From positions 1 to 45,559 of the forward strand of contig JAIFLS010000012.1 in NCBI GenBank assembly GCA_020048935.1: a DNA stretch of 45,559 nucleotides. Reading direction: 5' to 3'. Origin of the DNA: a bacterium. GTDB taxonomy: Bacteria > Verrucomicrobiota > Kiritimatiellia > UBA8416. The translations under genes and the position numbers were made by a program. Numbering within the stretch: position 1 is the stretch's first letter; each line of letters begins with the position of its first letter. The notes beneath the pieces are model-generated. The model had not been told where the DNA came from and did not search any database. It saw only the letters and a program-made list of their open reading frames with translations. Of the stretch, positions 7,907 to 24,826 are shown one piece after another.

Positions 7907-7916
7907 AGGTCTAGCC
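7901..7916. terminator. Short GC hairpin (GGCTAG-aggt-CTAGCC) containing both convergent stop codons
   Basis: The 6-bp stem spans the TAG of cheX (7904-7906) and the TAG of the minus-strand J-domain gene (7911-7913). A T5 run lies upstream on the + strand only, so this is not a canonical intrinsic terminator. Confidence 0.25.
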
Positions 7917-8453
7917 GGCGGTCATGGATTGGGATAGGAAATCGTAAGCTTCGTTGATCAGGGACATTTTCCGGTTATCGCCACCGGCATCGGGATGGAA
8001 CTTGCGCGCCAGGATGCGTCGACGCCGTGCCAGTGATTGCGGATCAATCTGTTCATCCAGGTTGAAGAGGTTGCGGAAGGCGGTGGTCTTGTCTGCATGA
8101 CTATGGCGTTCGATGTCTTCAAAGAAGTCGTGTGTCAAGCTGTCAAGCTGCCGTTCGAAGCGCCGGGCTTCGATTTCCTCGCGCAGTTCACGGCTGGTGG
8201 TGTAGCGAGCAATGAAAAAGAGAACGGCCCGCTTGTCGAACTGGGTAAAGCGTCCCAGCGCCTCAAAGGGTTTGGCCTCGTTGTCGCGGCGGAACCAGAG
8301 TACGCAGCGGCCATCAATCCAGGGGTGCAGCGTGACCTTGAACCGGTACTCATCGACCGTGATCTCAGAGAGCACTTCGGCGAAGTCCAAATCCAGCAGT
8401 AGAGCCTCGTTTTGTCCACATATTGTGTTCGTCTTTATCATCGACCGCATCAT
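7911..8453 (-). CDS. Hypothetical protein with a C-terminal J-domain core (HPD motif)
   Basis: The C-terminus RRRILARKFHPDAGGDNRKMSLINEAYDFL corresponds to J-domain helix II, HPD and helix III. I do not recognise the N-terminal ~130 aa. No clear Shine-Dalgarno sequence is present, so the start is uncertain (8453, 8450 or 8441). Confidence 0.6.
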   Translation of the reverse strand: MMRSMIKTNTICGQNEALLLDLDFAEVLSEITVDEYRFKVTLHPWIDGRCVLWFRRDNEAKPFEALGRFTQFDKRAVLFFIARYTTSRELREEIEARRFERQLDSLTHDFFEDIERHSHADKTTAFRNLFNLDEQIDPQSLARRRRILARKFHPDAGGDNRKMSLINEAYDFLSQSMTAG

Positions 8454-8569: not shown

Positions 8570-11533
8570 TTGCAATCAGATCGCATCGTAAACGAGAAGG
8601 ACTCAGCCCTGGTTGCTGATAACGGCTATGTGGCCATTGTCAACGATGATCCGATTCAGTTGGTCGTGCTGGCTGGCTTAGTTGCTAAAATGGGCTTGCG
8701 TGCGGCGTGTTTCGCGGGTGCCGAGGAAGCGCTTGAAAGCATGAGCCTGACCGATCCGCCTTTACTGGTTGTGACGGATATCTATATGCCCTCGATCGAT
8801 GGCTGGCGCTTCTGCCGCCTCTTGAGATCCCCTGAATACGCCGGCTTTAACCGGGTCCCGATTCTCGTCGTGTCCGCGACGTTTTCCGGCGAGGAACAGG
8901 ATCGAATCGCTGCCGATGTGGGGGCTGAGGCATTTCTGCCTTGTCCAATTGATGGCGGGATGTTTATTGATACGGTATGGCTGCTTCTCAATGGGCGGCC
9001 CGTACGCCCTTGCCCGCATGTCCTGATTGTGGATGATGATCCTGAATTCTCCCGATTGATGGCGACGGGGTTCGGCGAACACGGCTATCGCGTTACGGAG
9101 GCGGCGACCTGCCGGTCGGCAAGGACGGTGTTTGAGAACGAGCATGTGGATGTCGCGTTGCTTGACATCGGCCTGCCCGACGGGCGGGGCGATGCGTTTC
9201 TGCGGCAGTCTCATGACGAGGGTGGTGACACGGTTTTCATCATCATCAGCGGGACGCCGCATCCTGATGACTACTTGACCTGGATGAAAAGCGGGGCGTC
9301 GGCCAGTCTGCAGAAACCCTTTACGGTTGCCTATCTGCTTGAGATTTGCGCCAGGGCGCGGCGGGAAAAATCGTTATTGCGGGTCGAGGCCTTGCTGGAA
9401 TTGCGCACACGTGAGCTGCTGGAACGCGAAAAGGAGCGAGAGAAGCTTCAGGCGCGACTGGTCCAGGCGCAGAAAATGGAGACGGTTGGCCGGTTGGCGG
9501 GTGGCGTTGCGCACGATTTCAACAATATGCTAGGGGTCATTCTCGGGAATACCGAACTGGCGATGGATTTTGTAGACGCCGCCGACCCGCTGTTTGACAA
9601 TCTCAAGGAAGTACGCAATGCGGCGGTGCGCTCGGCGGATATTACGCGGCAGTTGCTGACCTTCTCGCGCAAGCAAACCGTTGCTCCCGTCGCGGTTGAT
9701 CTCAATGCGCAGTTGGAAGGTATGCTCAAGATGCTGCGCCGCCTGGTGACCGAGGATGTTACGATCCGGTGGACGCCGGGTGGCCATCTGTGGTCGGTCC
9801 TGATTGATCCCTGTCAGGTTGACCAAATGCTCGCGAACCTTTGCGTTAACGCCCGTGATGCGATTGAGCGCCCGGGGGGCAGTATCACGATCGCAACCGA
9901 TAATGTGACGCTGGATCGCCGGTTCTGCGATTATCATGCCGGTTGTGCGCCCGGACGGTATGTGTGCATACATGTGGGCGATAATGGTTGCGGCATGACG
10001 GCTGAGGTGCTTGAACACGCGTTTGAACCGTTTTATACCACGAAGGAAGTGGGCGAGGGGACCGGCCTCGGGTTGGCGACGGTGTATGGCATTGTAAAAC
10101 AGAACCACGGGCATGTGACAATCGACAGTGCCCCCGGCAATGGGACGGACGTCCGTATTTACCTGCCGCAACATGCAGCGGCAGTCGCTGAAACCAAGTC
10201 TGAAGTCGAGTTGCCGATTCCATGCGGGCATGGTGAGACCATATTGGTTGTGGAGGACGAATCGGCAATCCTGTATCTTTGCGCCTTGCTGCTGAAGCGG
10301 CAGCGTTACAACGTGCTGGCCGCACCGGGGCCGGCCGATGCCATCCGTCTGGCGCGCGAGCCTGGTGTTGCTGTCGATGTACTGCTGACCGATGTGATCA
10401 TGCCGGGGATGAATGGGCGGGAATTGGAAGCGGAAGTGCGGCAGTTGCACCCCGGCATGAAAAGTATTTTCATGTCGGGCTACACGTCTGACATTATTGA
10501 CAAGCAGGGCATTATGAACGCCGGGACGCATTTCATCCAGAAGCCCTTTGTCGCGCGTGATCTGGCGCACAAGTTGCAGGATGTACTGGCGGCGGATGCG
10601 GGCCCCCCCCCCCTTCCGTCGGCATTGTTACGCGAACCGAGTGCGGATCGCGTGCCTGCCGCGTGTGCCGCTGGCGATGCACCGCGGTCTGACAAGCCGT
10701 TGTCCGCGCCGGATGCCCCCGTGCGGGACGCCGCCCGCGAGGGTGATACGGCGCATTTGCAGATTTCGCGAAACCTGCAGCAACAGCGTCGGATTGAATC
10801 CATCGGGCGGTTGGCCAGAGGGGTTGCGAACGATTGCAATAATTTAATCATGGTGATCCAGTGGTACGCGGAACAGGCATTGGAGCTTATACCTCCGTCT
10901 CATTCCGCCCGGCAGTGGTTGGGCAAGATCCTGAGTGCCGCGGGCGAGTCCGCGGAATTGACGCGTCAGATGTTGTCCCGCCAGATGCTTGAATTTTCCC
11001 GTGATCAGGCGGCGCAGCCGGAAGTTGTCGACCTGCGTGTCCTGGCGGACACGCTCAAGCTTCTACATCGCCTGCTTCCTGACACGATTTCTATTTCCAT
11101 GGATCCGGGGCATGCGGTATGGCCGGTCTTCATCGATTCGGGGCAGTTGGACCAAATCCTGTTTAATCTCTGCTTGAATGCGCAGGACGCGATTGGTGAG
11201 ACGGAGGGCGAGATCCGGGTCGGGATTGAGAACGATAAGGGTGGGGAGCGGCTCGCGCTCAGGGTTCCCGGTTTCACGGCTGGTGATTATGTGCGGCTGT
11301 ATGTTGGCGACAGCGGCTGCGGCATGGATACGAACGTGCTTAACCATCTTTTTGATCCCTTTTTCACGACAAAAAATGAACGTGCCGGTCTTGGGCTGAC
11401 CACGGTGTCCGGCATCGTCAAGCAGAATGAGGGATACATTCTGGCGTCCAGCGAAGTCGGGAAAGGGTCGCTGATCGAGATTTACCTGCCACGTTATATT
11501 GCCGGCGTTCATGGCGTGGAGCAAGCGACATAA
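8570..11533 (+). CDS. Multidomain sensor protein: REC-REC-HisKA-HATPase-REC-(degenerate HisKA)-HATPase
   Basis: The start is TTG 8570, with GGAGG at 8557-8561. The receivers are marked by VVTDIYMPSIDG, LLDIGLPDGRG and LLTDVIMPGMNG. Kinase core 1 reads GGVAHDFNNML / LANLCVNARDAI / DNGCGM / GTGLGLATVYG. Kinase core 2 reads RGVANDCNNLI / LFNLCLNAQDAI / DSGCGM / AGLGLTTVSG. Confidence 0.85.
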   Translation: MQSDRIVNEKDSALVADNGYVAIVNDDPIQLVVLAGLVAKMGLRAACFAGAEEALESMSLTDPPLLVVTDIYMPSIDGWRFCRLLRSPEYAGFNRVPILVVSATFSGEEQDRIAADVGAEAFLPCPIDGGMFIDTVWLLLNGRPVRPCPHVLIVDDDPEFSRLMATGFGEHGYRVTEAATCRSARTVFENEHVDVALLDIGLPDGRGDAFLRQSHDEGGDTVFIIISGTPHPDDYLTWMKSGASASLQKPFTVAYLLEICARARREKSLLRVEALLELRTRELLEREKEREKLQARLVQAQKMETVGRLAGGVAHDFNNMLGVILGNTELAMDFVDAADPLFDNLKEVRNAAVRSADITRQLLTFSRKQTVAPVAVDLNAQLEGMLKMLRRLVTEDVTIRWTPGGHLWSVLIDPCQVDQMLANLCVNARDAIERPGGSITIATDNVTLDRRFCDYHAGCAPGRYVCIHVGDNGCGMTAEVLEHAFEPFYTTKEVGEGTGLGLATVYGIVKQNHGHVTIDSAPGNGTDVRIYLPQHAAAVAETKSEVELPIPCGHGETILVVEDESAILYLCALLLKRQRYNVLAAPGPADAIRLAREPGVAVDVLLTDVIMPGMNGRELEAEVRQLHPGMKSIFMSGYTSDIIDKQGIMNAGTHFIQKPFVARDLAHKLQDVLAADAGPPPLPSALLREPSADRVPAACAAGDAPRSDKPLSAPDAPVRDAAREGDTAHLQISRNLQQQRRIESIGRLARGVANDCNNLIMVIQWYAEQALELIPPSHSARQWLGKILSAAGESAELTRQMLSRQMLEFSRDQAAQPEVVDLRVLADTLKLLHRLLPDTISISMDPGHAVWPVFIDSGQLDQILFNLCLNAQDAIGETEGEIRVGIENDKGGERLALRVPGFTAGDYVRLYVGDSGCGMDTNVLNHLFDPFFTTKNERAGLGLTTVSGIVKQNEGYILASSEVGKGSLIEIYLPRYIAGVHGVEQAT
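10603..10613 (+). repeat. Poly-C(11) homopolymer inside the coding sequence (GPPPL)
   Basis: Counted directly: ggc ccc ccc ccc ctt gives C at positions 10603-10613. It lies in the linker between the third receiver and the second kinase module. Confidence 0.9.
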
Positions 11534-11558: not shown

Positions 11559-11909
11559 ATGCATGATGTGCAGATCGATCAGCTTCGCGTGGGTGATGTG
11601 GTTGCCGGCGATGTGCGCGATGTGTCGGGGAAAGTGCTTGTTCGTAAAGGCCTGGTCCTGACGGCCCGGTATTTGCGCGCACTACGGATGTGGGGGACGG
11701 AAACCGTTGCGATTGATGGCGAGGATCAATCCGCCCCGGCGCCAGCGGTGACGATTTCGCCGGCGGAGGAGGCGCAGGCACGGTCAGTGCTTGAACGGCG
11801 GTTCCTGCTTGCTCCGGTAACGCATCCGGCGATGGCCCGCCTTTTTGAGCTCAGCTTGAAACGGCAATTTCTGGCATGGCATGCCGAGGCGGGACATCAT
11901 GAAATTTGA
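11559..11909 (+). CDS. Small hypothetical protein (116 aa)
   Basis: The ORF is in operon context, 25 bp after the upstream stop, and it overlaps the HDOD start by 11 bp. The N-terminus IDQLRVGDVVAGDVRDVSGKVLVRKGLVLT...LRMWGTETVAID is vaguely like the N-terminal region seen on some HD-GYP/HDOD-associated proteins, from memory only. Confidence 0.45.
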   Translation: MHDVQIDQLRVGDVVAGDVRDVSGKVLVRKGLVLTARYLRALRMWGTETVAIDGEDQSAPAPAVTISPAEEAQARSVLERRFLLAPVTHPAMARLFELSLKRQFLAWHAEAGHHEI

Positions 11910-12756
11910 ATCGGCTGACGACCTTGTTGCCAACGTGCAGACGATCCCTTCCCTGCCGGCGGTGTTTGACCGGATTAATAAGGTTGCCAACCAGCCCTCG
12001 GCCGCGCTTATGGATGTGGCGGGGGTTATCAGTGAGGATGTCGGACTGAGTTCACGACTATTGAAGCTGGTTAATAGTGCCTATTTCGGTTTTCCCTCGC
12101 GTATTGAAAGCGTGACGAAAGCATGTGTGATCGTGGGCACGCGGCAAATCCGCCAACTTGCATTGGCGACGTCGGTTGTCAACGTCTTCAAATCCGTGCC
12201 GCCGGATATTCTGAATATGCAGATGTTCTGGCGGCACAGCGTCGGATGCGCCATGGCCGCCCGCACCGTGGCGATGATCGGGGGTGCCCAGGATGTTGAG
12301 AGCCATTTCGTGCTGGGGCTGCTTCACGATGTCGGACGGCTGGTCATGTTACAGACGATGCCGGATGAGACCGCGCGTGTCATCCGTGAGTCATACGACG
12401 CGAATTGCCTGACACATGACCTGGAGCGGCGCCGGTTCGGATTCACGCATGCGGATGTGGGCAGTGCGCTCTTGAAACGCTGGGGGCTGCCCCCGGTTGT
12501 GGTGGAGGCGGTAGGCCGGCATCATACGCCGGTTGAGGCGCCGTGCAACCAGCACGAGGCGGCTTGCGTCCATTATTGTGATATTGTGGTGCATGCACTG
12601 GGTATCGGCCAAAGCGGGAATCCGATGGTACCGCCGATGGATGAAACCGCCTGGGATGTGCTTGGTCTTGAACCCGAGGCTGCCGATGCGGTGGTTGCGC
12701 AGCTTGACACGCAGATTGAGGAGCTTGCCGACCAGTTTTGCGGGGGTGCGCAGTGA
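11899..12756 (+). CDS. HDOD-domain protein (paralogue 2 of 4)
   Basis: Motifs are [54 protein letters not shown] and [14 protein letters not shown] 11899 is preferred over the track start 11881. Confidence 0.85.
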
Positions 12757-15038
12757 GCCCCTCCGGCCACCCTGATTACCGTCTTGAGAATCATGACGCG
12801 GGACGGGAATCCGTCGGGGATAGCGGTACGCTCTGGACACTGGATGCCTTGAGTATCGTGCAATCCTTTGTCGGCGCCCCGGGCGGCGGGACGCTGCGGG
12901 GGAATCCTGCCTTAGCGGAAATCTACGCCGAGGGGGCCGTGCATATTCGCGCATTGCTTCCCGATATCGCTGAATTCGGGATCATGCTGCTTGATGCGTC
13001 GCATCTGGATATGACGTTTGCATTTTGCGACCCGGAATCCTCGCGAGCACGCTTGCAGGCCGAGGTCGATGCCCAGATTGATGCCGGGATTGTGGGCTGG
13101 GCGCTTCGGCAAGGACAGCTTTGCATTACGCCGTCGCTGGTGGTGCCGGACCGGCATGTGATCCTGCGTCTACTGGCAACACGATTTGATCGGCTTGGAA
13201 TGTTTGTGGGGATCATCCGTGAGGACCCGCTGGCAGCATCCCCGATCGTTGGCGAATTGCTGGCGCTTTTGCTGACCGGGTTGTCGACGGCGATCGAAAG
13301 CTGCAAGCTGCAGGATCAGTTGCTGGCGGCGAATCGTGATCTTGAGAACCGGATTGCGGAACGGACGTCCGAGCTGGTGGAGGAAACCCGTCGGGCAAAC
13401 GATCTGGCTAGTCGCGCGGATGCCGCTAATATTGCCAAGAGTGAGTTCCTGGCCAACATGAGTCATGAGATCCGGACGCCGTTGAATGGTGTGACCGGCA
13501 TGGTCGCGATGTTACGGGATTCTCCACTGTCGGAAGCGCAGCGCCAATATGCCGAGGTTGCCAATTCAAGTGCGCAATCATTACTGGAAGTATTGAATGG
13601 GATTCTTGACTTATCGAAAATCGAGTCCGGGAAGTTGACCCTGGATATCGAGAATGTCAACCTTCACGGTCTGCTGGATGGCGTGCGAAAAATTTACGCG
13701 ATGCGTGCCGTTACTAAAAACCTTGGCTTTCGTTGCGAAATTGATCGGGGTGTCCCTGCCGGTGTGCGCTGCGATCCTGTACGTTTACGCCAGGTGCTGA
13801 TGAATTTGCTCGACAATGCCGTCAAATTCACGAAACAAGGCGAAGTCAGTTTACGGGTTTCCGTGGTCCGCGATCACGACGATGGCGGACCCTCTGGTGC
13901 AGATGCCGTCTGCCTTCGTTTTTCGGTCTGCGATTCGGGGATTGGCATTCCGGCCGACAAGCAGCATTTGTTATTCCAGAAATTCTCGCAGGTGGATGGG
14001 TCCGTGTCGCGGCGGTTTGGCGGGACAGGGCTCGGGTTGGCGATCTCCTACCAGCTTGTCGAGATGATGGGCGGGAAGTTCGAGGTCCAGAGCGAGGTTG
14101 GCAAGGGCACCGAATTCAGTTTTACGGCTTGCTTTGTATGCGTAGGCGCGCATGAACTGCCTATCGCCGGTTTTGGTGCGAGTGGCGTTCCTGGGGCAAC
14201 GCCCGACTTCAGGGGCAACGACGTGCATGTGCTGTTGGTGGAGGATAACCTCACGAATCAGCAGGTGGCTTGCGGCATGCTACAGAAAATGGGGATTATT
14301 GCGGACGTTGCCAGCAATGGGGCTGAGGCTCTCAACAGGGTTCGGAGTCGCGCATACGATCTGGTGTTGATGGATTGCCAGATGCCGGTCATGGATGGCA
14401 TGACCGCCACCCGTTCTCTTCGGTCCATGCAGCCATCCGCTACGCAACCCCTGGCCACTTTGCCATCGGTTCCCGTCGTGGCGATGACGGCGCATGCATT
14501 ACAAGGCGACCGTGAAATCTGCATCGCTGCCGGCATGAACGATTATCTTGCCAAGCCGGTGGCCACGGATGCGCTTGGGGCGATTCTGAATAAATGGCTG
14601 CCGGTGCACAAGCGTGCAAGCCAGTATGTTGCCGTACCCCCCTTCACGGCCGGGAATCAAACCGCCGATGCATCAGCGCGCAGCACGCCATGTGCAGTAT
14701 GGAATCAAGCGGAAATGCGAAAGAGGCTGCTTGGGGATGATGACCTTATCGCTCGCGTCCTCAATGACTACCTTAAACAGGTGCCTGGGCAGTTAAGCGC
14801 ATTGCGCGATTCGCTCTTGAAGGCAGAGCGGCAGGAGTTGAAGCGGATGGCGCACACGTTGAAGGGCTCCTCTGCCAGTGTCGGTGCGGACGTGTTGAGC
14901 GCGGCGGCATTCAAAGTCGAGCAGGCCGCACAAGCTTTTGATGCGGATTTCCTGACGGCGCAGATGGATGTGCTCGATCAGGAATTTGCGCGACTTAAAG
15001 AGGTCATGGCATTGGGTGGTGCCGTTTGTACTTGCTAA
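12738..15038 (+). CDS. Tripartite hybrid sensor kinase (N-terminal GAF-like sensor, HisKA, HATPase, REC, HPt)
   Basis: The H-box is [16 protein letters not shown]. The ATPase boxes are [15 protein letters not shown] and [10 protein letters not shown]. The REC part reads VLLVEDN ... [11 protein letters not shown] ... YLAKPV. The C-terminal HPt reads [14 protein letters not shown]. The start is TTG 12738 or GTG 12753 (GTGA overlap with the HDOD stop). The sensor-domain call is weak. Confidence 0.85.
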
Positions 15039-15066
15039 GATAACACTTCAACCGTAGGATTCCCGG

Positions 15067-17676
15067 ATGCACTCAAATACTGTCACGCTTGATGATATCC
15101 GCGAGTGGGCTGGCCAAGCAGCGGGTGAGTTCATGCTCCTCGGTCCCTCGGATTTGCAGGGGCTTGCGCGCCTGGTCAAATCCCTGCAACAAAAAGCCTC
15201 TGAGTGTGCCGTTGCTGAGAATGCTGAGAATGTGCGCGCTTATGCCGATTCGCTGCTCAGAGCATCGGGAACGCTCAAGGCAATCATATTGAATGAGGCT
15301 CCTGATAAGGAGGCTGCCTTGGACACGGTTGCCGGTGTGCTTGATCAGGGGCAATCGCTTGGGTTGCATCCGGAGCGGGGCGGTCGCGCCAAACAGGACC
15401 CTGCGGTTTCGCAGGATGCGGCGACGGACACCACTGCCTCCGCCGCAACGAAAGGCGAATATGCGCCCTGGGTGGATGATGAGATTGTCGCCGCGTATGT
15501 CGAGCAGCAGGTGGCGGTGTTGCCTGAGATGGAGCAGCAGATCCTTGCCTATGAATCGCAACCGGATCCGGCCTTGGTTTCGGCGCTGCGACGCACGATT
15601 CATACCCTGAAGGGAGAGTCGGGGGTCGTCGGCGCCATGAATGTCGAAAAGGCTTGTCATCGGCTCGAGGATTACCTGAATGAGTCGACGATCGCGATGG
15701 CGACCGACGTGCTGCTGGCGGCGATCGACTGGATCGGTAATGCCGTGCGTTCGTTTGGCACCAGCGGGGAACAGGTTGATCCAGCCCCCGTCCTTGCCTT
15801 GTTCGAGGGGAATGATTCGTTGCAGAAGGGGAACGACGAACCGGAGGGCGAAGCCGTCGTCCCGACCGCGACCGTCCCGATGGATGCCCCCGTGTCGAAA
15901 GCGCCCGCCACCACGGTTCCTATTTCCGACCGCGACCTGGCCAATGATTTCGTGACTGAATCCCAGGAACATTTTGAAGCTGCCGATGAGAATCTGCTAG
16001 TTCTCGAGAAAGACCCGACCAATAAGGAATCGATCGGGGCTGTTTTCAGGGCGTTCCATACCATCAAGGGGGTTTCCGGCTTTCTCGGGTTAACACCTGT
16101 CGGGGAGCTTGCGCATGCGGCGGAAACGTTGCTCGATGAGATTCGCAAAGGCAAGCATTCATTTAAGGGGGGGGCCGTTGAAGCCACATTTAACGCGCTT
16201 GATCTTTTAAAGGTTATGATTGGTGATTTGCACGTTGCGTTGGAAAAGAATACGGATTTTCCCGTACGCCCGGAGGTCGAGTCTAGTATCAAGGTGCTTC
16301 GGGCGATTACTGAACGGAAAGAGCCTGATATGCCTGATGCTGGCTTGCCGCCCGCCGTGGTGCCGGTCGCGGAACCTGTCGCCATAAAACCAACCGTGGA
16401 GCGAGGACAGCCTGTATCGACTGAAGCGACTGCGCCGAAGGCACCGGAACACAAGCACAAGCCTGCTGCTGAAACCAAGGCGGCAGGGGATGCTGCCGCC
16501 AAGGCCACGGGGGAAGCGGGCGGCACGATGAAGGTGGATGCGAGCCGGATCGACCTGCTGCTGGACACGATTGGTGAACTGGTGATTGCGGAGGCGATTG
16601 TGGCTGGCGATCCGGATATCCAGGCCATCAAATCGCTGAGGCTTGAGAAGAATCTTGCATTGCTTGGCAAGATTACGCGGTCCCTGCAGGATATGGGAAT
16701 GTCGATGCGTCTCGTTCCGATTGACCCTGTTTTCCGGAAAATGGCCCGTCTGGTGCGTGATCTTTCGCATAAGTCAGGGAAGAAAGTTGATCTTAAGATC
16801 GAAGGTGGTGAGACTGAGATTGACAAAAGCATGGTCGACAAGCTTGGCGATCCGCTTGTTCATATGATTCGGAACTCAATGGATCATGGTCTTGAATCTT
16901 CGGAGGATCGTTTGGCGGCTGGAAAGCCCGAGGTCGGTGTAATTACGTTGCGGGCGTATCATAAGGGTGGCAGCATACAAATCGATATCGAGGATAATGG
17001 CCGTGGCTTGAATCGCGAGGCGATTGTGAACAAGGCCATTGAGAGGAATCTGATCCGCAGTGGCGAGGGAATGTCGGATCAGGAAATCTTCGCTCTCATT
17101 TTCGAGCCTGGCTTCTCGACTGCAGCCAAAATCACAGAAATATCGGGACGCGGGGTTGGTATGGATGTGGTTAGGCGCAATGTCGAGTCACTCCGTGGTA
17201 ATGTCATCATCCGGTCAACGCCCGGAGAGGGTTCTGTTTTCACTCTAGCGCTACCGCTGACAACAGCCATCATTGATGGATTGCTTGCCAGGGTCGGTGC
17301 GGAGATCTTTATCCTGCCAACGCTCTCGGTTCTGGAATCCTTCCGCCCCTTGGATGGCCAGATCCACCCAGTGGGAGGGCAGGGTGAGGTTGTGTCATTT
17401 CGTGATATGCTACTTCCGCTTTACCGTTTGTCCGCGATTCTTAATGTGCCGAATGCCCATTCCGATCCTTGCCAAGCGATTATCATGGTGATTGAAGATT
17501 CCGGCAGATACTGGGGCTTGATGGTTGATGAGTTGCTTGGTCAGCAACAAGTGGTCATCAAAAGTATCGGGGACGGGGTTGGTGTGGTGCCTGGCATTGC
17601 CGGCGCCAGTATCCTGGCCGATGGACGTCCAGGACTGATTCTTGACACAGCCGGCATCATTCGTTTGGTTTCGTAG
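15067..17676 (+). CDS. cheA: Second CheA-type histidine kinase, again with two HPt (P1) domains
   Basis: The HPt motifs are TIHTLKGESGVVGA (His codon 15601-15603) and AFHTIKGVSGFLGL (His codon 16057-16059). Further motifs are MKVDASRIDLLLDTIGELVI, HMIRNSMDHGLE, DNGRGL and GRGVGMDVV. A CheW-like C-terminus is present. Confidence 0.93.
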   Translation: MHSNTVTLDDIREWAGQAAGEFMLLGPSDLQGLARLVKSLQQKASECAVAENAENVRAYADSLLRASGTLKAIILNEAPDKEAALDTVAGVLDQGQSLGLHPERGGRAKQDPAVSQDAATDTTASAATKGEYAPWVDDEIVAAYVEQQVAVLPEMEQQILAYESQPDPALVSALRRTIHTLKGESGVVGAMNVEKACHRLEDYLNESTIAMATDVLLAAIDWIGNAVRSFGTSGEQVDPAPVLALFEGNDSLQKGNDEPEGEAVVPTATVPMDAPVSKAPATTVPISDRDLANDFVTESQEHFEAADENLLVLEKDPTNKESIGAVFRAFHTIKGVSGFLGLTPVGELAHAAETLLDEIRKGKHSFKGGAVEATFNALDLLKVMIGDLHVALEKNTDFPVRPEVESSIKVLRAITERKEPDMPDAGLPPAVVPVAEPVAIKPTVERGQPVSTEATAPKAPEHKHKPAAETKAAGDAAAKATGEAGGTMKVDASRIDLLLDTIGELVIAEAIVAGDPDIQAIKSLRLEKNLALLGKITRSLQDMGMSMRLVPIDPVFRKMARLVRDLSHKSGKKVDLKIEGGETEIDKSMVDKLGDPLVHMIRNSMDHGLESSEDRLAAGKPEVGVITLRAYHKGGSIQIDIEDNGRGLNREAIVNKAIERNLIRSGEGMSDQEIFALIFEPGFSTAAKITEISGRGVGMDVVRRNVESLRGNVIIRSTPGEGSVFTLALPLTTAIIDGLLARVGAEIFILPTLSVLESFRPLDGQIHPVGGQGEVVSFRDMLLPLYRLSAILNVPNAHSDPCQAIIMVIEDSGRYWGLMVDELLGQQQVVIKSIGDGVGVVPGIAGASILADGRPGLILDTAGIIRLVS

Positions 17677-17723: not shown

Positions 17724-18212
17724 ATGCGAATTATAAAGGATCCCGTATTGGACGGGTGGGAATTGGCCGAGAGTGACGAGGACACACGGATCCTGCCAAG
17801 CGGGCCCTTTGTGCCATGCAAGCCGGATCGCATTCTGGTTGTGGATGACGAACAGTCAGTGCGCAGTGCCACGATACGGATACTCCGGCAGGAACTGGGC
17901 GGTGCTTATGCGTATGACGAAGCGATAAACGGCCAGGATGCGGTCACGGTGTTCATGCGCGAGCATCATAAGGTGATTCTGCTGGATTTATTGATGCCGG
18001 TCCTGGGTGGCAAGCAGGCGGCGCATCAGATTCTTGATTTATGTGCGGAGTCGCAATGGGAGACACCCGCGATTATCTTTCGTACCGGCTATGCTCCGCC
18101 GGGGGATGTCCGGAATCTCGTTGCCTGCGATCCGGCCCATTGCCTGTTGCGCAAACCGGTGCGCAATCAAACGCTGGTCAGGGCCGTGCGGGGACGACTG
18201 GGACAGGATTGA
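17724..18212 (+). CDS. Response regulator receiver protein with a ~35-aa N-terminal extension
   Basis: ILVVDDEQSVRS ... ILLDLLMPVLGG ... FRTGY ... LLRKPV are receiver motifs. Confidence 0.75.
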   Translation: MRIIKDPVLDGWELAESDEDTRILPSGPFVPCKPDRILVVDDEQSVRSATIRILRQELGGAYAYDEAINGQDAVTVFMREHHKVILLDLLMPVLGGKQAAHQILDLCAESQWETPAIIFRTGYAPPGDVRNLVACDPAHCLLRKPVRNQTLVRAVRGRLGQD

Positions 18213-22895: not shown

Positions 22896-24530
22896 TCACT
22901 GGGGGAGGGGGGGCGCATCCGTGCGCTTCTGAAGGACGGTGCATATTGCCGATTGGAGGCGTCCTTGCGTGATCGGTTTGGACACGACCAGGTCGACGCC
23001 TGGGATTTCCAGCCCCCTGGCGTTGATCAGATCGCCATACCCGGTCACCAGGATGACCGGCATATCAGCTTTTATACGTTTTGCCCGCGTGGCGACCACG
23101 TCACCGCTCATCTCCATCATCGCCCGGTCTGTCATTACCAGATCGAATGTCCCTGCTGCCAGCCGCGCAAGCCCGGTCTCGGCATCCTCGAATATCTCGA
23201 CGTCGTGTCCTTCCGCCTCGAGAAAGCGTTTGAGAACCTGTAGCGAGGCCGCATCATCGTCGATGACAAGAACACGCAGGAAGGGAATCTCGATCAGGGG
23301 GGGGGGCGTCTTGCTGACTTTCGGGGTTCTGCTTTCCGGCAGCGAGATCGTCACGCAGGTCCCATGTCCCTCGCGGCTCTCGATGGTTATATCGCCGCCA
23401 TGCCGGCGCGCAATGTTGCAGCACATCGCCAGGCCGAGTCCGGACCCGTTTTCGCCCTTGGTCGAGAAAAACGGTTCCATGCAGCGTGCTGCGGTTTCCG
23501 GCGACATGCCCGCACCATCGTCCGACACGCTCAGGTGAATCATCGCATTATCCGCACAGGCGCTGCTGATCCGTATCGTGCCCTCGTGGTCGATGGCATG
23601 TGCGGAATTAATCACGAGGTTGATCAGCATCTGATGCAATTGCGATTCGCTGGCGGACACGTCGGGCGTCTGGCCGATATCGTTGATGATCCGTATGCGT
23701 TTCCCTTCCGCCAGCCAGCCCGTGAGCGTCTGCTTGATAACCTTGTCAACCAGTGGGCGCAGCGCGACGGGCGCGACCGCCCGCGGGGCGTCATCCGAGT
23801 AGAATCCGCGTAGGCGCTGGACAACCGATTGCGCATCCCTAGCGGCCGAAAGCACGGTGTCCAGTATCTCGATCTGCTCCTGCGAGCCGCCATCGGTTTT
23901 TATCTGCATCAGCAGATAGTCGGTTAATCCGAGAATCGGCATGAGGGCGTTATTGAAGTCGTGTGCAATACCGCTGGCCAGTTGCCCCAGGGCGTTCAGG
24001 CGTTCCTGCCGTTCGATTTTCGCGTGGGTCATGCGTACGCTCTCAAGCGCGGCGGTCAACTGGTCGTTGCTCGCCTGCAGGGCCTTCGTGCGTGCGGCCA
24101 CCAGGTCCTCCAGGTCGTGCAGGTAAGCCGCCTTTTCCTGTTCAAGCTGTTTGCAGCGATCATCGGTTGCCTTGATTTTGGCCGCCTTCTCGACGGCACG
24201 ACACAACACGTCGTCAGGGGTCGGTTTGATCAAGTAGTCCGCGGCTCCGTTCCGAACCGCCTCCGCCGCTCCGTCCAGGGTCGGCGCCCCGGTCATCATG
24301 ATTATTTGGGTGGCTAATCCGCGTTGACGGACGGCCTTGAGCAGTTCGATCCCGTCATCGCCGGGCATCACAATGTCCGTCAGGATGACATCGACGTCGT
24401 GTTGCAGTAGTATACCTATGGCCTCTGCGGTGCTTTCCGCCGTTACCACCTGGTGGTTATCCTTCTGGAGGCGTTTCTGCATCATCAGGCGCATCGACAC
24501 TTCATCATCAACAACTAATATAAACGCCAT
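22896..24530 (-). CDS. REC-HisKA-HATPase-REC sensor kinase
   Basis: ATG 24530 is preceded by AGGAGCGTGAT; the track start 24635 adds 35 aa with no RBS. Motifs are ILVVDDEVSM ... ILTDIVMPGDDG, then SGIAHDFNNALMPI, INLVINSAHAI, DDGAGM and GSGLGLAMC, then VLVIDDD ... VMTDRAMMEMSG. Confidence 0.85.
   Translation of the reverse strand: MAFILVVDDEVSMRLMMQKRLQKDNHQVVTAESTAEAIGILLQHDVDVILTDIVMPGDDGIELLKAVRQRGLATQIIMMTGAPTLDGAAEAVRNGAADYLIKPTPDDVLCRAVEKAAKIKATDDRCKQLEQEKAAYLHDLEDLVAARTKALQASNDQLTAALESVRMTHAKIERQERLNALGQLASGIAHDFNNALMPILGLTDYLLMQIKTDGGSQEQIEILDTVLSAARDAQSVVQRLRGFYSDDAPRAVAPVALRPLVDKVIKQTLTGWLAEGKRIRIINDIGQTPDVSASESQLHQMLINLVINSAHAIDHEGTIRISSACADNAMIHLSVSDDGAGMSPETAARCMEPFFSTKGENGSGLGLAMCCNIARRHGGDITIESREGHGTCVTISLPESRTPKVSKTPPPLIEIPFLRVLVIDDDAASLQVLKRFLEAEGHDVEIFEDAETGLARLAAGTFDLVMTDRAMMEMSGDVVATRAKRIKADMPVILVTGYGDLINARGLEIPGVDLVVSKPITQGRLQSAICTVLQKRTDAPPLPQ
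23297..23306 (-). repeat. Poly-C(10) on the coding (minus) strand, encoding TPPPL
   Basis: Ten consecutive G on the + strand were counted at 23297-23306. The tract lies in the linker between the ATPase core and the C-terminal receiver. Confidence 0.9.
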
Positions 24531-24826
24531 ATCACGCTCCTGAGGCAACCAGTATCCGCCGCTTGTCAACTTGACCCCGTGATACCCAGAGTCAACAAGT
24601 GATTCCAGAGTAATACAGAAGTTGAAAGGGCGCAAGCCGGAACTCGTGTGAGCAGCGATTCGCGATTCTTACGATGGAGTCTTCCCGAGTCCATCCTGCA
24701 CGGTTGCGAGAATGGACTCGAACGCGATGGTCTTGGGGAGAATGATCTCGTCGGTTCCGACCTGGTTGCGCCGCGTGGCTTCCTTGTTGCTGACCAAGGC
24801 GGTTTTGTCCGCCACCGCGATTATTA

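Follow-up and report, generated by a model that had tools for sequence, protein, structure and literature searches.

How should we read a hybrid histidine kinase in which the second of two catalytic cores carries asparagine in place of the phospho-accepting histidine: as a pseudokinase by design, or as a core that has lost its function in one lineage? The question is raised by a gene at positions 8570-11533 of contig JAIFLS010000012.1 (assembly GCA_020048935.1) from a bacterium of the class Kiritimatiellia, phylum Verrucomicrobiota. We analysed positions 1 to 45,559 of its forward strand, and this whole stretch of 45,559 nucleotides (nt) is referred to below as the window. The encoded protein of 987 amino acids (aa), hereafter the two-core kinase, has the domain order REC-REC-DHp/CA-REC-DHp/CA, which we abbreviate as R-R-T1-R3-T2 (R, receiver; T, transmitter, i.e., a DHp/CA core). 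The substitution in T2, H754N, proved to be real, recent and private to the lineage of the window, and we favour its interpretation as a loss of function.

Asparagine in the Second H-Box

The codon in question, AAC at 10829-10831 (+), encodes Asn754 at the phospho-acceptor position of the second H-box (RGVANDCNNLI, followed by the family-specific MVIQWYAEQ). Its counterpart in the first core is CAC at 9512-9514, encoding H315 within the H-box GGVAHDFNNML. Both codons had been identified in a first-pass annotation made from the letters alone, and both were confirmed here, as was the register in which that annotation had placed the second H-box. When the two cores were aligned with each other (261 aa, 42% identity, E = 4e-64), N754 fell opposite H315; it also paired with the His of GGVAHDFNNLL in the solved CckA DHp-CA structure 5IDJ (E = 2.6e-36), a sequence match that fixes the predicted fold of T2. 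The Pfam HisKA model covers this kinase subfamily poorly: core 1 scored merely 31-32 bits against it, and DHp2 reached 13.4 bits (E = 0.083), under the cut-off of 26.9. The register was equal in both cores, residues 12-73 of core 2 being placed on profile positions 3-63 and residues 12-74 of core 1 on positions 3-64. It had also been considered that the true phospho-His might be a neighbouring residue of the second core. The candidate for such a role, H776 in the hairpin loop near N754, was ruled out, since it varies among orthologues, and no other conserved His lies nearby.

Apart from the acceptor itself, core 2 keeps the sequence motifs of a HisKA-type (CckA-like) transmitter. The pattern H-[E/D]-x-x-[T/N] is satisfied at H+1 and H+4 (N754-D755-C-N-N758), with the acceptor His replaced, and the HATPase_c boxes were located at aa 864-875 (LFNLCLNAQDAI), 914-919 (DSGCGM), 928-935 (FDPFFTTK) and 939-948 (AGLGLTTVSG). 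Their key residues (N870, D914, G916, G918, F931, F932, G940, G942 and L943) are invariant across eight two-core homologues. Thus, the earlier statement that the N, G1, F and G2 boxes of core 2 are intact holds, and so does the statement that this core is not phosphorylatable at the canonical site, which the Asn at the acceptor position supports. Seen as a whole, the window protein has H315, D608 and N754, whereas all seven other members of the family described below possess both acceptor histidines and the internal aspartate of a transmitter-receiver-transmitter (T-R-T) kinase.

Core 2 had also been called a paralogous copy of core 1. Such a view is correct in the broad sense, given the 42% identity between the two; however, core 2 shares 45-51% identity with hundreds of other CckA-type kinases, more than it shares with core 1, and therefore it is not a recent internal duplicate. 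The ATP lid before its G2 box (11375-11395, aa 936-942) varies in length: it is two residues shorter in the close clade of P0001-P0003 (K-NERAGLGL) and longer in distant two-core homologues, as in KPPGKGSGMGL, with the GxGL core retained.

Histidine in the Relatives and a Private Allele

A search with the whole protein returned seven other clusters with the two-core architecture, at 43-83% identity. These are P0002 (83%), P0003 (71%), P0005 (48%, Verrucomicrobia bacterium UBA6015), and P0004, P0006, P0007 and P0008, in which a PAS domain is inserted before T1 only. In the alignment, the acceptor of core 2 is His in all seven. Together with the window protein, they make up a small uncharacterised family from uncultured bacteria of the PVC group (Verrucomicrobiota and relatives). 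Both states of residue 754 occur within the window protein's own 90% cluster, where P0122 and P0124, 92% identical to it, read GVAHDCNN, while the near-identical P0121, P0123, P0125 and P0127 read GVANDCNN. At the DNA level, codon 754 is CAC in loci L003, L005 and L008 and CAT in L006. Herein, L003 represents a sister population, with 95.4% nt identity over the gene and 92% aa identity.

An exhaustive search with core 2, covering 1.84 billion cluster representatives, recovered P0002, P0004-P0007 and five other two-core proteins, with His in both cores throughout. It was needed because the word-indexed search with the same core listed generic single-core CckA-type kinases only and none of the true orthologues. 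Across all fetched proteins, the acceptor His is present in 401 of 406 aligned cores, all five exceptions being the Asn of the window lineage, and Asn754 is confined to a cluster of at least 99.6% nt identity. The seven other homologues agree completely in 221 alignment columns, and the window protein departs from them at five of these (V127I, L210F, C221T, M225I and H754N); four of the changes are conservative, leaving H754N as the sole radical one.

His is the ancestral residue at position 754, and a single base was changed, CAC to AAC. As all seven homologues and the sister population carry His, Asn754 is not a trait of the family, and the alignments leave unsupported the designed pseudokinase that the first-pass annotation had suggested. 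That annotation had also allowed for a mutation specific to the strain should orthologues carry His, and this is the situation that we found, down to a sister at 95.4% nt identity.

The allele recurs. AAC was found in the window, in L004, L009, L010, L011, L012 and L013, and for the proteins P0121, P0123, P0125 and P0127. Besides the window, seven assemblies carry it, and these stem from at least six samples (JGI 3300001765, 3300028549, 3300033509, 3300033514 and 3300033564; ENA ERZ2286749); the genes of this Asn lineage are 99.6-100% identical to that of the window. One natural population is fixed for AAC. The first pass had left room for a sequencing error, but assemblies made by separate projects with different assemblers (JGI, ENA and an NCBI/Logan copy) agree on AAC, which rules this alternative out.

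Selection on the Second Core and Further Lesions

In the His-bearing part of the family, both transmitters are under purifying selection. Between His-bearing orthologues, the ratio of nonsynonymous to synonymous substitution rates (dN/dS) is 0.18-0.27 for DHp2 together with CA2 and 0.10-0.16 for core 1, the receivers being close too. Core 2 of the family is therefore a maintained transmitter, probably one that binds ATP.

Two assemblies of the Asn lineage carry additional lesions in the T2 part of the gene. The first affects a C11 homopolymer at 10603-10613 (+), the longest homopolymer in the window, which codes for G-PPP-L in the linker between REC3 and DHp2. In the otherwise 99.87%-identical contig L004, the tract is C10, and the resulting frameshift yields a protein of 758 aa that lacks T2. 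At this place, the sister lineage shows an interrupted GCAC8, two bases off C11, and L008 has C6. The difference between C10 and C11 may stem either from contingency-like slippage or from homopolymer sequencing error. The second lesion is an in-frame deletion of 12 nt in L011 (ENA), corresponding to 10913-10924 (+) and flanked by GGCA microhomologies; it removes QWLG 782-785, of which W783 and L784 are the same in all eight two-core homologues. If real, these lesions hint that T2 is now dispensable and that relaxed constraint has led to incipient decay. Because T2 is hit in Asn-lineage assemblies both by a frameshift and by a loss of invariant residues, we favour loss of function over new function for H754N.

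Architecture of the Two-Core Kinase

The open reading frame (8570-11533, +, stop included) begins with TTG, preceded by GGAGG 8 nt upstream. A Pfam scan of the 987-aa protein gave three Response_reg matches, two HATPase_c matches and a single HisKA match above threshold (aa 307-369, core 1), and no match to a PAS domain. With the alignment of the two cores, the scan bears out the domain order proposed in the first pass, and the protein is a cytoplasmic (soluble) hybrid histidine kinase of the R-R-T1-R3-T2 type.

Aligned with CheY, all three receivers keep the phospho-Asp (D70, D199 and D608), and REC2 and REC3 are canonical. REC1 (8627-8992, +; aa 20-141) is atypical in spite of D70: Asn25 occupies the place of the first acidic residue, and the universally conserved receiver Lys is replaced by Cys125 (within LPCP, 8936-8947). 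Both replacements are invariant in the family, as is the pair C125-P126, and it is possible that REC1 does not play the normal role of a phospho-acceptor. REC2 (9017-9325, +; aa 150-252) has D155/D156, D199, S227 and K249. It passes through its alpha5 into the helix of aa 253-332, which leads into DHp1 and together with DHp1 alpha2 occupies 9326-9670 (+). CA1, the ATP-binding catalytic domain of core 1, follows at 9689-10168 (+), with its N, G1, F and G2 boxes intact. REC3 (10238-10591, +; aa 557-674) is an intermediary receiver of the CckA type, with D608 (10391-10393), FMSGY at aa 634-638 and K658. A Pro/Ala-rich linker of about 50 aa (10598-10747, +), predicted with low confidence to be devoid of regular structure, connects it to the helical hairpin of DHp2 (10748-11002, +; aa 727-811). 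The catalytic domain of core 2, CA2 (11021-11494, +), completes the protein, with N870, D914xGxG918, F931/F932 and G940xGL943 present.

A full-length AlphaFold model had a mean predicted local distance difference test score (pLDDT) of 68 and a predicted template modelling score (pTM) of 0.31, with the REC and CA domains confident. We used it for domain boundaries and secondary structure only. In the model, a single helix (253-332) joins REC2 to DHp1, the first DHp2 helix contains N754, and the linker between REC3 and DHp2 (677-726) is unstructured, at low confidence.

Single-core relatives with REC, HisKA and HATPase_c domains (P0017, P0054 and P0101; 659-675 aa) are 51-54% identical to the first two-thirds of the two-core kinase. 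This match makes core 2 appear to have been appended to the C-terminus of a simpler R-R-T-R kinase.

A Putative Phosphorelay and Its Interruption

What would a second complete core do in such a protein, and what would follow from the loss of its histidine? We regard it as probable that the family works as a T1-R3-T2 relay of the TodS type, with H754 as the second histidine, and that H754N in the window lineage is a loss of function that ends the relay at REC3. A census found proteins with two transmitters to be over-represented among hybrid kinases (51 of 4650) and proposed that their T2 serves as a phosphotransfer domain (PMC3018481). For TodS, a T-R-T kinase, the order His1-Asp1-His2-Asp2 is reported as demonstrated (PMC4321377). 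The FxSGY motif occurs in the intermediary receiver of CckA, a domain that carries phosphate from one DHp domain to another and undergoes no allosteric change in doing so (PMC9981736), and ChpT, the phosphotransferase that acts after the CckA receiver, has a kinase-like structure (PMC3433190). In our protein, the best NCBIfam matches of T1 plus REC3 were the CckA models NF046020 and NF046026 (568 and 487 bits, against an equivalog cut-off of 1000), and an LvrB-type REC-HK model matched REC2-T1. We infer the relay path for the family from the CckA-like T1 and REC3, the FMSGY motif, the flexible linker and the precedents of TodS and ChpT.

The scenario may be depicted as follows. Phosphorylation of the canonical REC2, perhaps with some input from the atypical REC1, would set the autokinase activity of T1 through the continuous REC2-DHp1 helix; the phosphate on REC2 may be donated by a CheA or by the HK-REC-Hpt protein, both encoded nearby. 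T1 would then autophosphorylate at H315 and pass the phosphate to D608 of REC3. As a shuttle receiver of the CckA type on a flexible linker of 50 aa, REC3 would deliver it to H754 of DHp2, so that T2 would take the position that ChpT, or an Hpt domain, holds downstream of CckA. From H754, the phosphate would move to a separate terminal response regulator, completing the same His1-Asp1-His2-Asp2 path as in TodS (T-R-T-R). With His2 removed by H754N, T2 of the window lineage could neither autophosphorylate nor accept phosphate from REC3, at which the relay would stop. The Asn form of T2 keeps D755, N758 and the helix that docks response regulators, and would be capable at most of partner binding or dephosphorylation. 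Phosphatase activity of HisKA kinases depends on the T/N at H+4, while His-to-Ala mutants can retain much of it (PMC3510030); such a residual activity is conceivable here because D755 and N758, the latter at the phosphatase-specific H+4 position, are retained. The first-pass annotation had spoken of an intramolecular relay of unusual complexity. A relay is indeed plausible, with TodS as its precedent, but it would be of an ordinary kind rather than a new signalling design.

Probable Loss of Function and Its Alternatives

Several observations weigh against a relay broken by loss of function. The order of the relay steps is drawn by analogy only. TodS, the closest precedent, differs in having a PAS domain before each transmitter, no N-terminal receivers and an adjacent DNA-binding partner, TodT, whereas we saw no obvious dedicated terminal regulator adjoining the two-core kinase gene. 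The AlphaFold model, with low pLDDT in both DHp hairpins and a pTM of 0.31, is uninformative as to domain arrangement, including the choice of docking partner for REC3. With regard to decay, T2 shows no excess of derived aa changes on the window branch (five, against seven on the sister branch), and its dN/dS between window and sister, 0.40, is not above the 0.48 of T1 on this short branch. In the absence of a substitution signal, decay of T2 cannot be demonstrated from substitutions, and the argument for it consists of the two indel lesions alone. These were seen in one assembly each, one in an error-prone homopolymer (L004) and the other on a contig of 3.8x coverage (L011), and could be artefactual. 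Finally, since it was found in at least six samples, H754N is not strongly deleterious and could even have adaptive value.

Among the alternatives, the first is that T2 is an independent second kinase regulated by REC3 (or by REC1 or REC2), in which case H754N would silence one of two parallel outputs. The complete and invariant CA2 boxes of the family, superfluous in a pure phosphotransfer domain, speak for this, as does the second transmitter of TodS, which retains autokinase activity (PMC3018481). Regulation of a kinase by a receiver is, moreover, common, as exemplified by the LvrB-type model that matches REC2-T1. However, REC3 with its FMSGY is of the shuttle type, and a long unstructured linker instead of a signalling helix speaks against rigid allosteric control. 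We regard an independent T2 as possible, although on the unlikely side; it is compatible with the relay, the two not being mutually exclusive.

The main rival to loss of function is that H754N was selected, and that T2 became a pure phosphatase or a sink that holds the output off, while T1 and REC3 signal through some other Hpt route. It corresponds to the phosphatase-only module of the first-pass annotation, recast as an allele of one population. Such a phosphatase-locked or scaffold allele would account for its fixation in seven further assemblies and for H754N being the sole radical change at an otherwise invariant site. The retention of D755, N758 and the ATP-binding boxes also agrees with it, given that in HisKA kinases it is the T/N and not the His that is specific to the phosphatase reaction (PMC3510030), and dead kinase variants can be adaptive, as the ChrS pseudokinase from laboratory evolution demonstrates (PMC9491836). 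On the other hand, a T2 under positive maintenance would hardly be expected to be lost by a frameshift, or stripped of invariant DHp2 residues by a deletion, in members of the same lineage. Loss of the His abolishes phosphatase activity as well in some kinases, such as PleC H610A (PMC3510030), and no partner regulator is known. Overall, we consider the adaptive allele unlikely.

It is tempting to suppose that T2 is a contingency module, in which slippage at C11 (made from C8 by two point changes), a short way upstream of core 2, toggles the protein between R-R-T-R-T and a CckA-like R-R-T-R, with H754N as a second, fixed uncoupling. If this were so, natural populations would tune a chemosensory phosphorelay by silencing its last kinase core. 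The idea is quite improbable in our estimation. The designed pseudokinase as a family-defining feature, similar to DivL with its Tyr for His, has very little left to recommend it: the remainder of core 2 is intact, and both DivL (PMC4211667, PMC5361649) and PsmA (PMC12963549) exist, but the His of every other two-core homologue and of the 92%-identical sisters refutes it at the level of the family. An error of sequencing or assembly at one base, with which the single-nucleotide difference from the sister lineage would agree, is refuted by the recurrence of AAC, and we assign it a negligible chance.

Genomic Neighbourhood

The two-core kinase gene resides in an exceptionally dense signalling island (3-45286) that comprises two CheA, two CheB, two CheR, two CheD, four CheX-like and four HDOD proteins, at least six stand-alone receivers, five hybrid kinases and an NtrC-type activator, with flagellar genes alongside. 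On the plus strand, the window opens with the C-terminal part of a methyl-accepting chemotaxis protein (MCP) fused to a hemerythrin domain (3-866), possibly a sensor of O2 or iron. Cut by the window edge, it begins the first che cluster and is followed by CheY, CheA, CheR, CheB, CheD, HDOD, CheY and CheX. Next comes a divergent gene for a 180-aa protein with a weak C-terminal J-domain (7911-8453, -), syntenic in close orthologous loci.

Downstream of the two-core kinase, the plus strand continues with a 116-aa protein with a weak DUF3391 match (11559-11909), which every orthologous locus has, even the distant L006; an HDOD-domain protein (11881-12756), a conserved partner gene; a conserved HisKA-HATPase-REC-Hpt hybrid kinase of 766 aa (12738-15038), a candidate source of phosphate for REC1 and REC2; a second CheA with two Hpt stretches and dimerisation, HATPase and CheW domains (15067-17676), conserved in 3' position in close orthologous loci; and a stand-alone receiver of 162 aa (17724-18212), the last gene of the co-directional run and a candidate terminal acceptor. 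The block formed by the two-core kinase, the 116-aa protein, the HDOD protein and the HK-REC-Hpt kinase is syntenic in L003, L005, L008 and L009-L013, and parts of it remain linked in the distant L006 and L007. All orthologous loci have the 116-aa and HDOD proteins together in the vicinity of the two-core kinase, and in the close loci they follow it immediately; in the 48%-identical locus of the Verrucomicrobia UBA6015 type, other genes stand between the members of the block.

The catalytic His, the Asp and the Hpt His of the neighbouring hybrid kinase (12738-15038) are intact. Over its DHp-CA-REC-Hpt part (approximately 13350-15085), the window and L003 share 62-84% identity, against 95-99% in the rest of the operon; the window has 78 derived aa changes, compared with 31 in L003, and a 10-aa deletion. 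This divergent stretch of about 1.7 kb looks like a recombination tract. A scan for sigma-70 promoters and terminators around the operon found such sites to be no commoner than in shuffled sequence.

Farther along, the minus strand encodes two PAS hybrid kinases, a REC-REC-HK protein, a transglutaminase-like protein and the NtrC-type activator, and then a che set of CheB, REC, CheX, HDOD, REC, HDOD, CheD and CheR. The minus-strand REC-REC-HisKA-HATPase gene at 22896-24635 contains a G10 tract on the plus strand (C10 in the coding sense, 23297-23306), and its domain order, REC-REC-HK, matches the N-terminal part of the two-core kinase. A plus-strand DUF2225 gene precedes fliO, fliP, fliR, flhB, flhA, flhF, flhG and fliA (+), 3' of which are minus-strand CheX and CheY and, as the last gene, a plus-strand flagellin. 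The nearest named relatives of FlhA are from Verrucomicrobia (78%), followed by Spartobacteria, Lentisphaerota and Kiritimatiellae (58-60%), which places the host among the uncultured bacteria of the PVC group.

Significance

A double kinase with a dead second core belongs to a known kind of relay, present in censuses and dissected in TodS, and does not constitute a new design. The family itself is uncharacterised, however, and represents a fused analogue of CckA and a ChpT-like station, with a second core predicted to be ATP-competent. It might therefore serve as a convenient single-polypeptide system in which to ask why relays use a whole transmitter as His2. The alleles His754 of the sister population and Asn754 of the window are naturally matched, about 8% of residues apart, and come near to a built kinase-dead control, while the frameshift and the deletion hint at the fate of a relay module after its His is lost. 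There is also a lesson for annotation: a degenerate H-box on one metagenomic contig should be compared with close relatives before a pseudokinase is named.

Comparison with Known Systems

TodS, TmoS and StyS of Pseudomonas resemble the family in being soluble polypeptides with two complete DHp/CA modules that flank an internal receiver. The His of the second transmitter of TodS is reported as the phosphotransfer site (PMC4321377, PMC3018481), and both His residues are conserved in our family. Unlike TodS, the two-core kinase has two N-terminal receivers, a bare flexible linker before T2 and a che/flagellar locus without an adjacent DNA-binding regulator, and the window allele has no His2; the likeness is one of architecture and not of tested sequence kinship. 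A similar comparison can be made with RedCDEF of Myxococcus xanthus (T1-R1R2-T2-R3), where modules also alternate and T2 obtains phosphate from a receiver without autophosphorylation (PMC3018481). There, the domains are spread over four proteins, and we liken the two by domain logic rather than by tested relatedness.

Complete ATP-binding boxes set CA2 of the two-core kinase apart from the CA-like domain of ChpT, which is degenerate. In other respects, the CckA-ChpT pathway of Caulobacter and other Alphaproteobacteria is close: CckA models match T1 plus REC3 best, 5IDJ is the best solved relative of T2, and the FxSGY motif is shared. The receiver of CckA passes phosphate to ChpT, which has a dimeric, kinase-like DHp/CA fold (PMC3433190), and here a DHp/CA core is fused at that very position. 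Nevertheless, the two-core kinase is not a CckA equivalog, as its scores lie far under the equivalog cut-off, transmembrane and PAS sensor regions are missing, and its host belongs to the PVC group and not to the Alphaproteobacteria.

Finally, DivL, PsmA and laboratory-evolved ChrS all possess a core without a phosphorylatable canonical His but with the rest of the fold kept (PMC4211667, PMC5361649, PMC12963549, PMC9491836). The degenerate site of DivL and PsmA is a trait conserved in the family and tied to a new role, whereas here it is a one-base allele of one population. H754N is thus nearest in spirit to ChrS, as a recent mutational inactivation.

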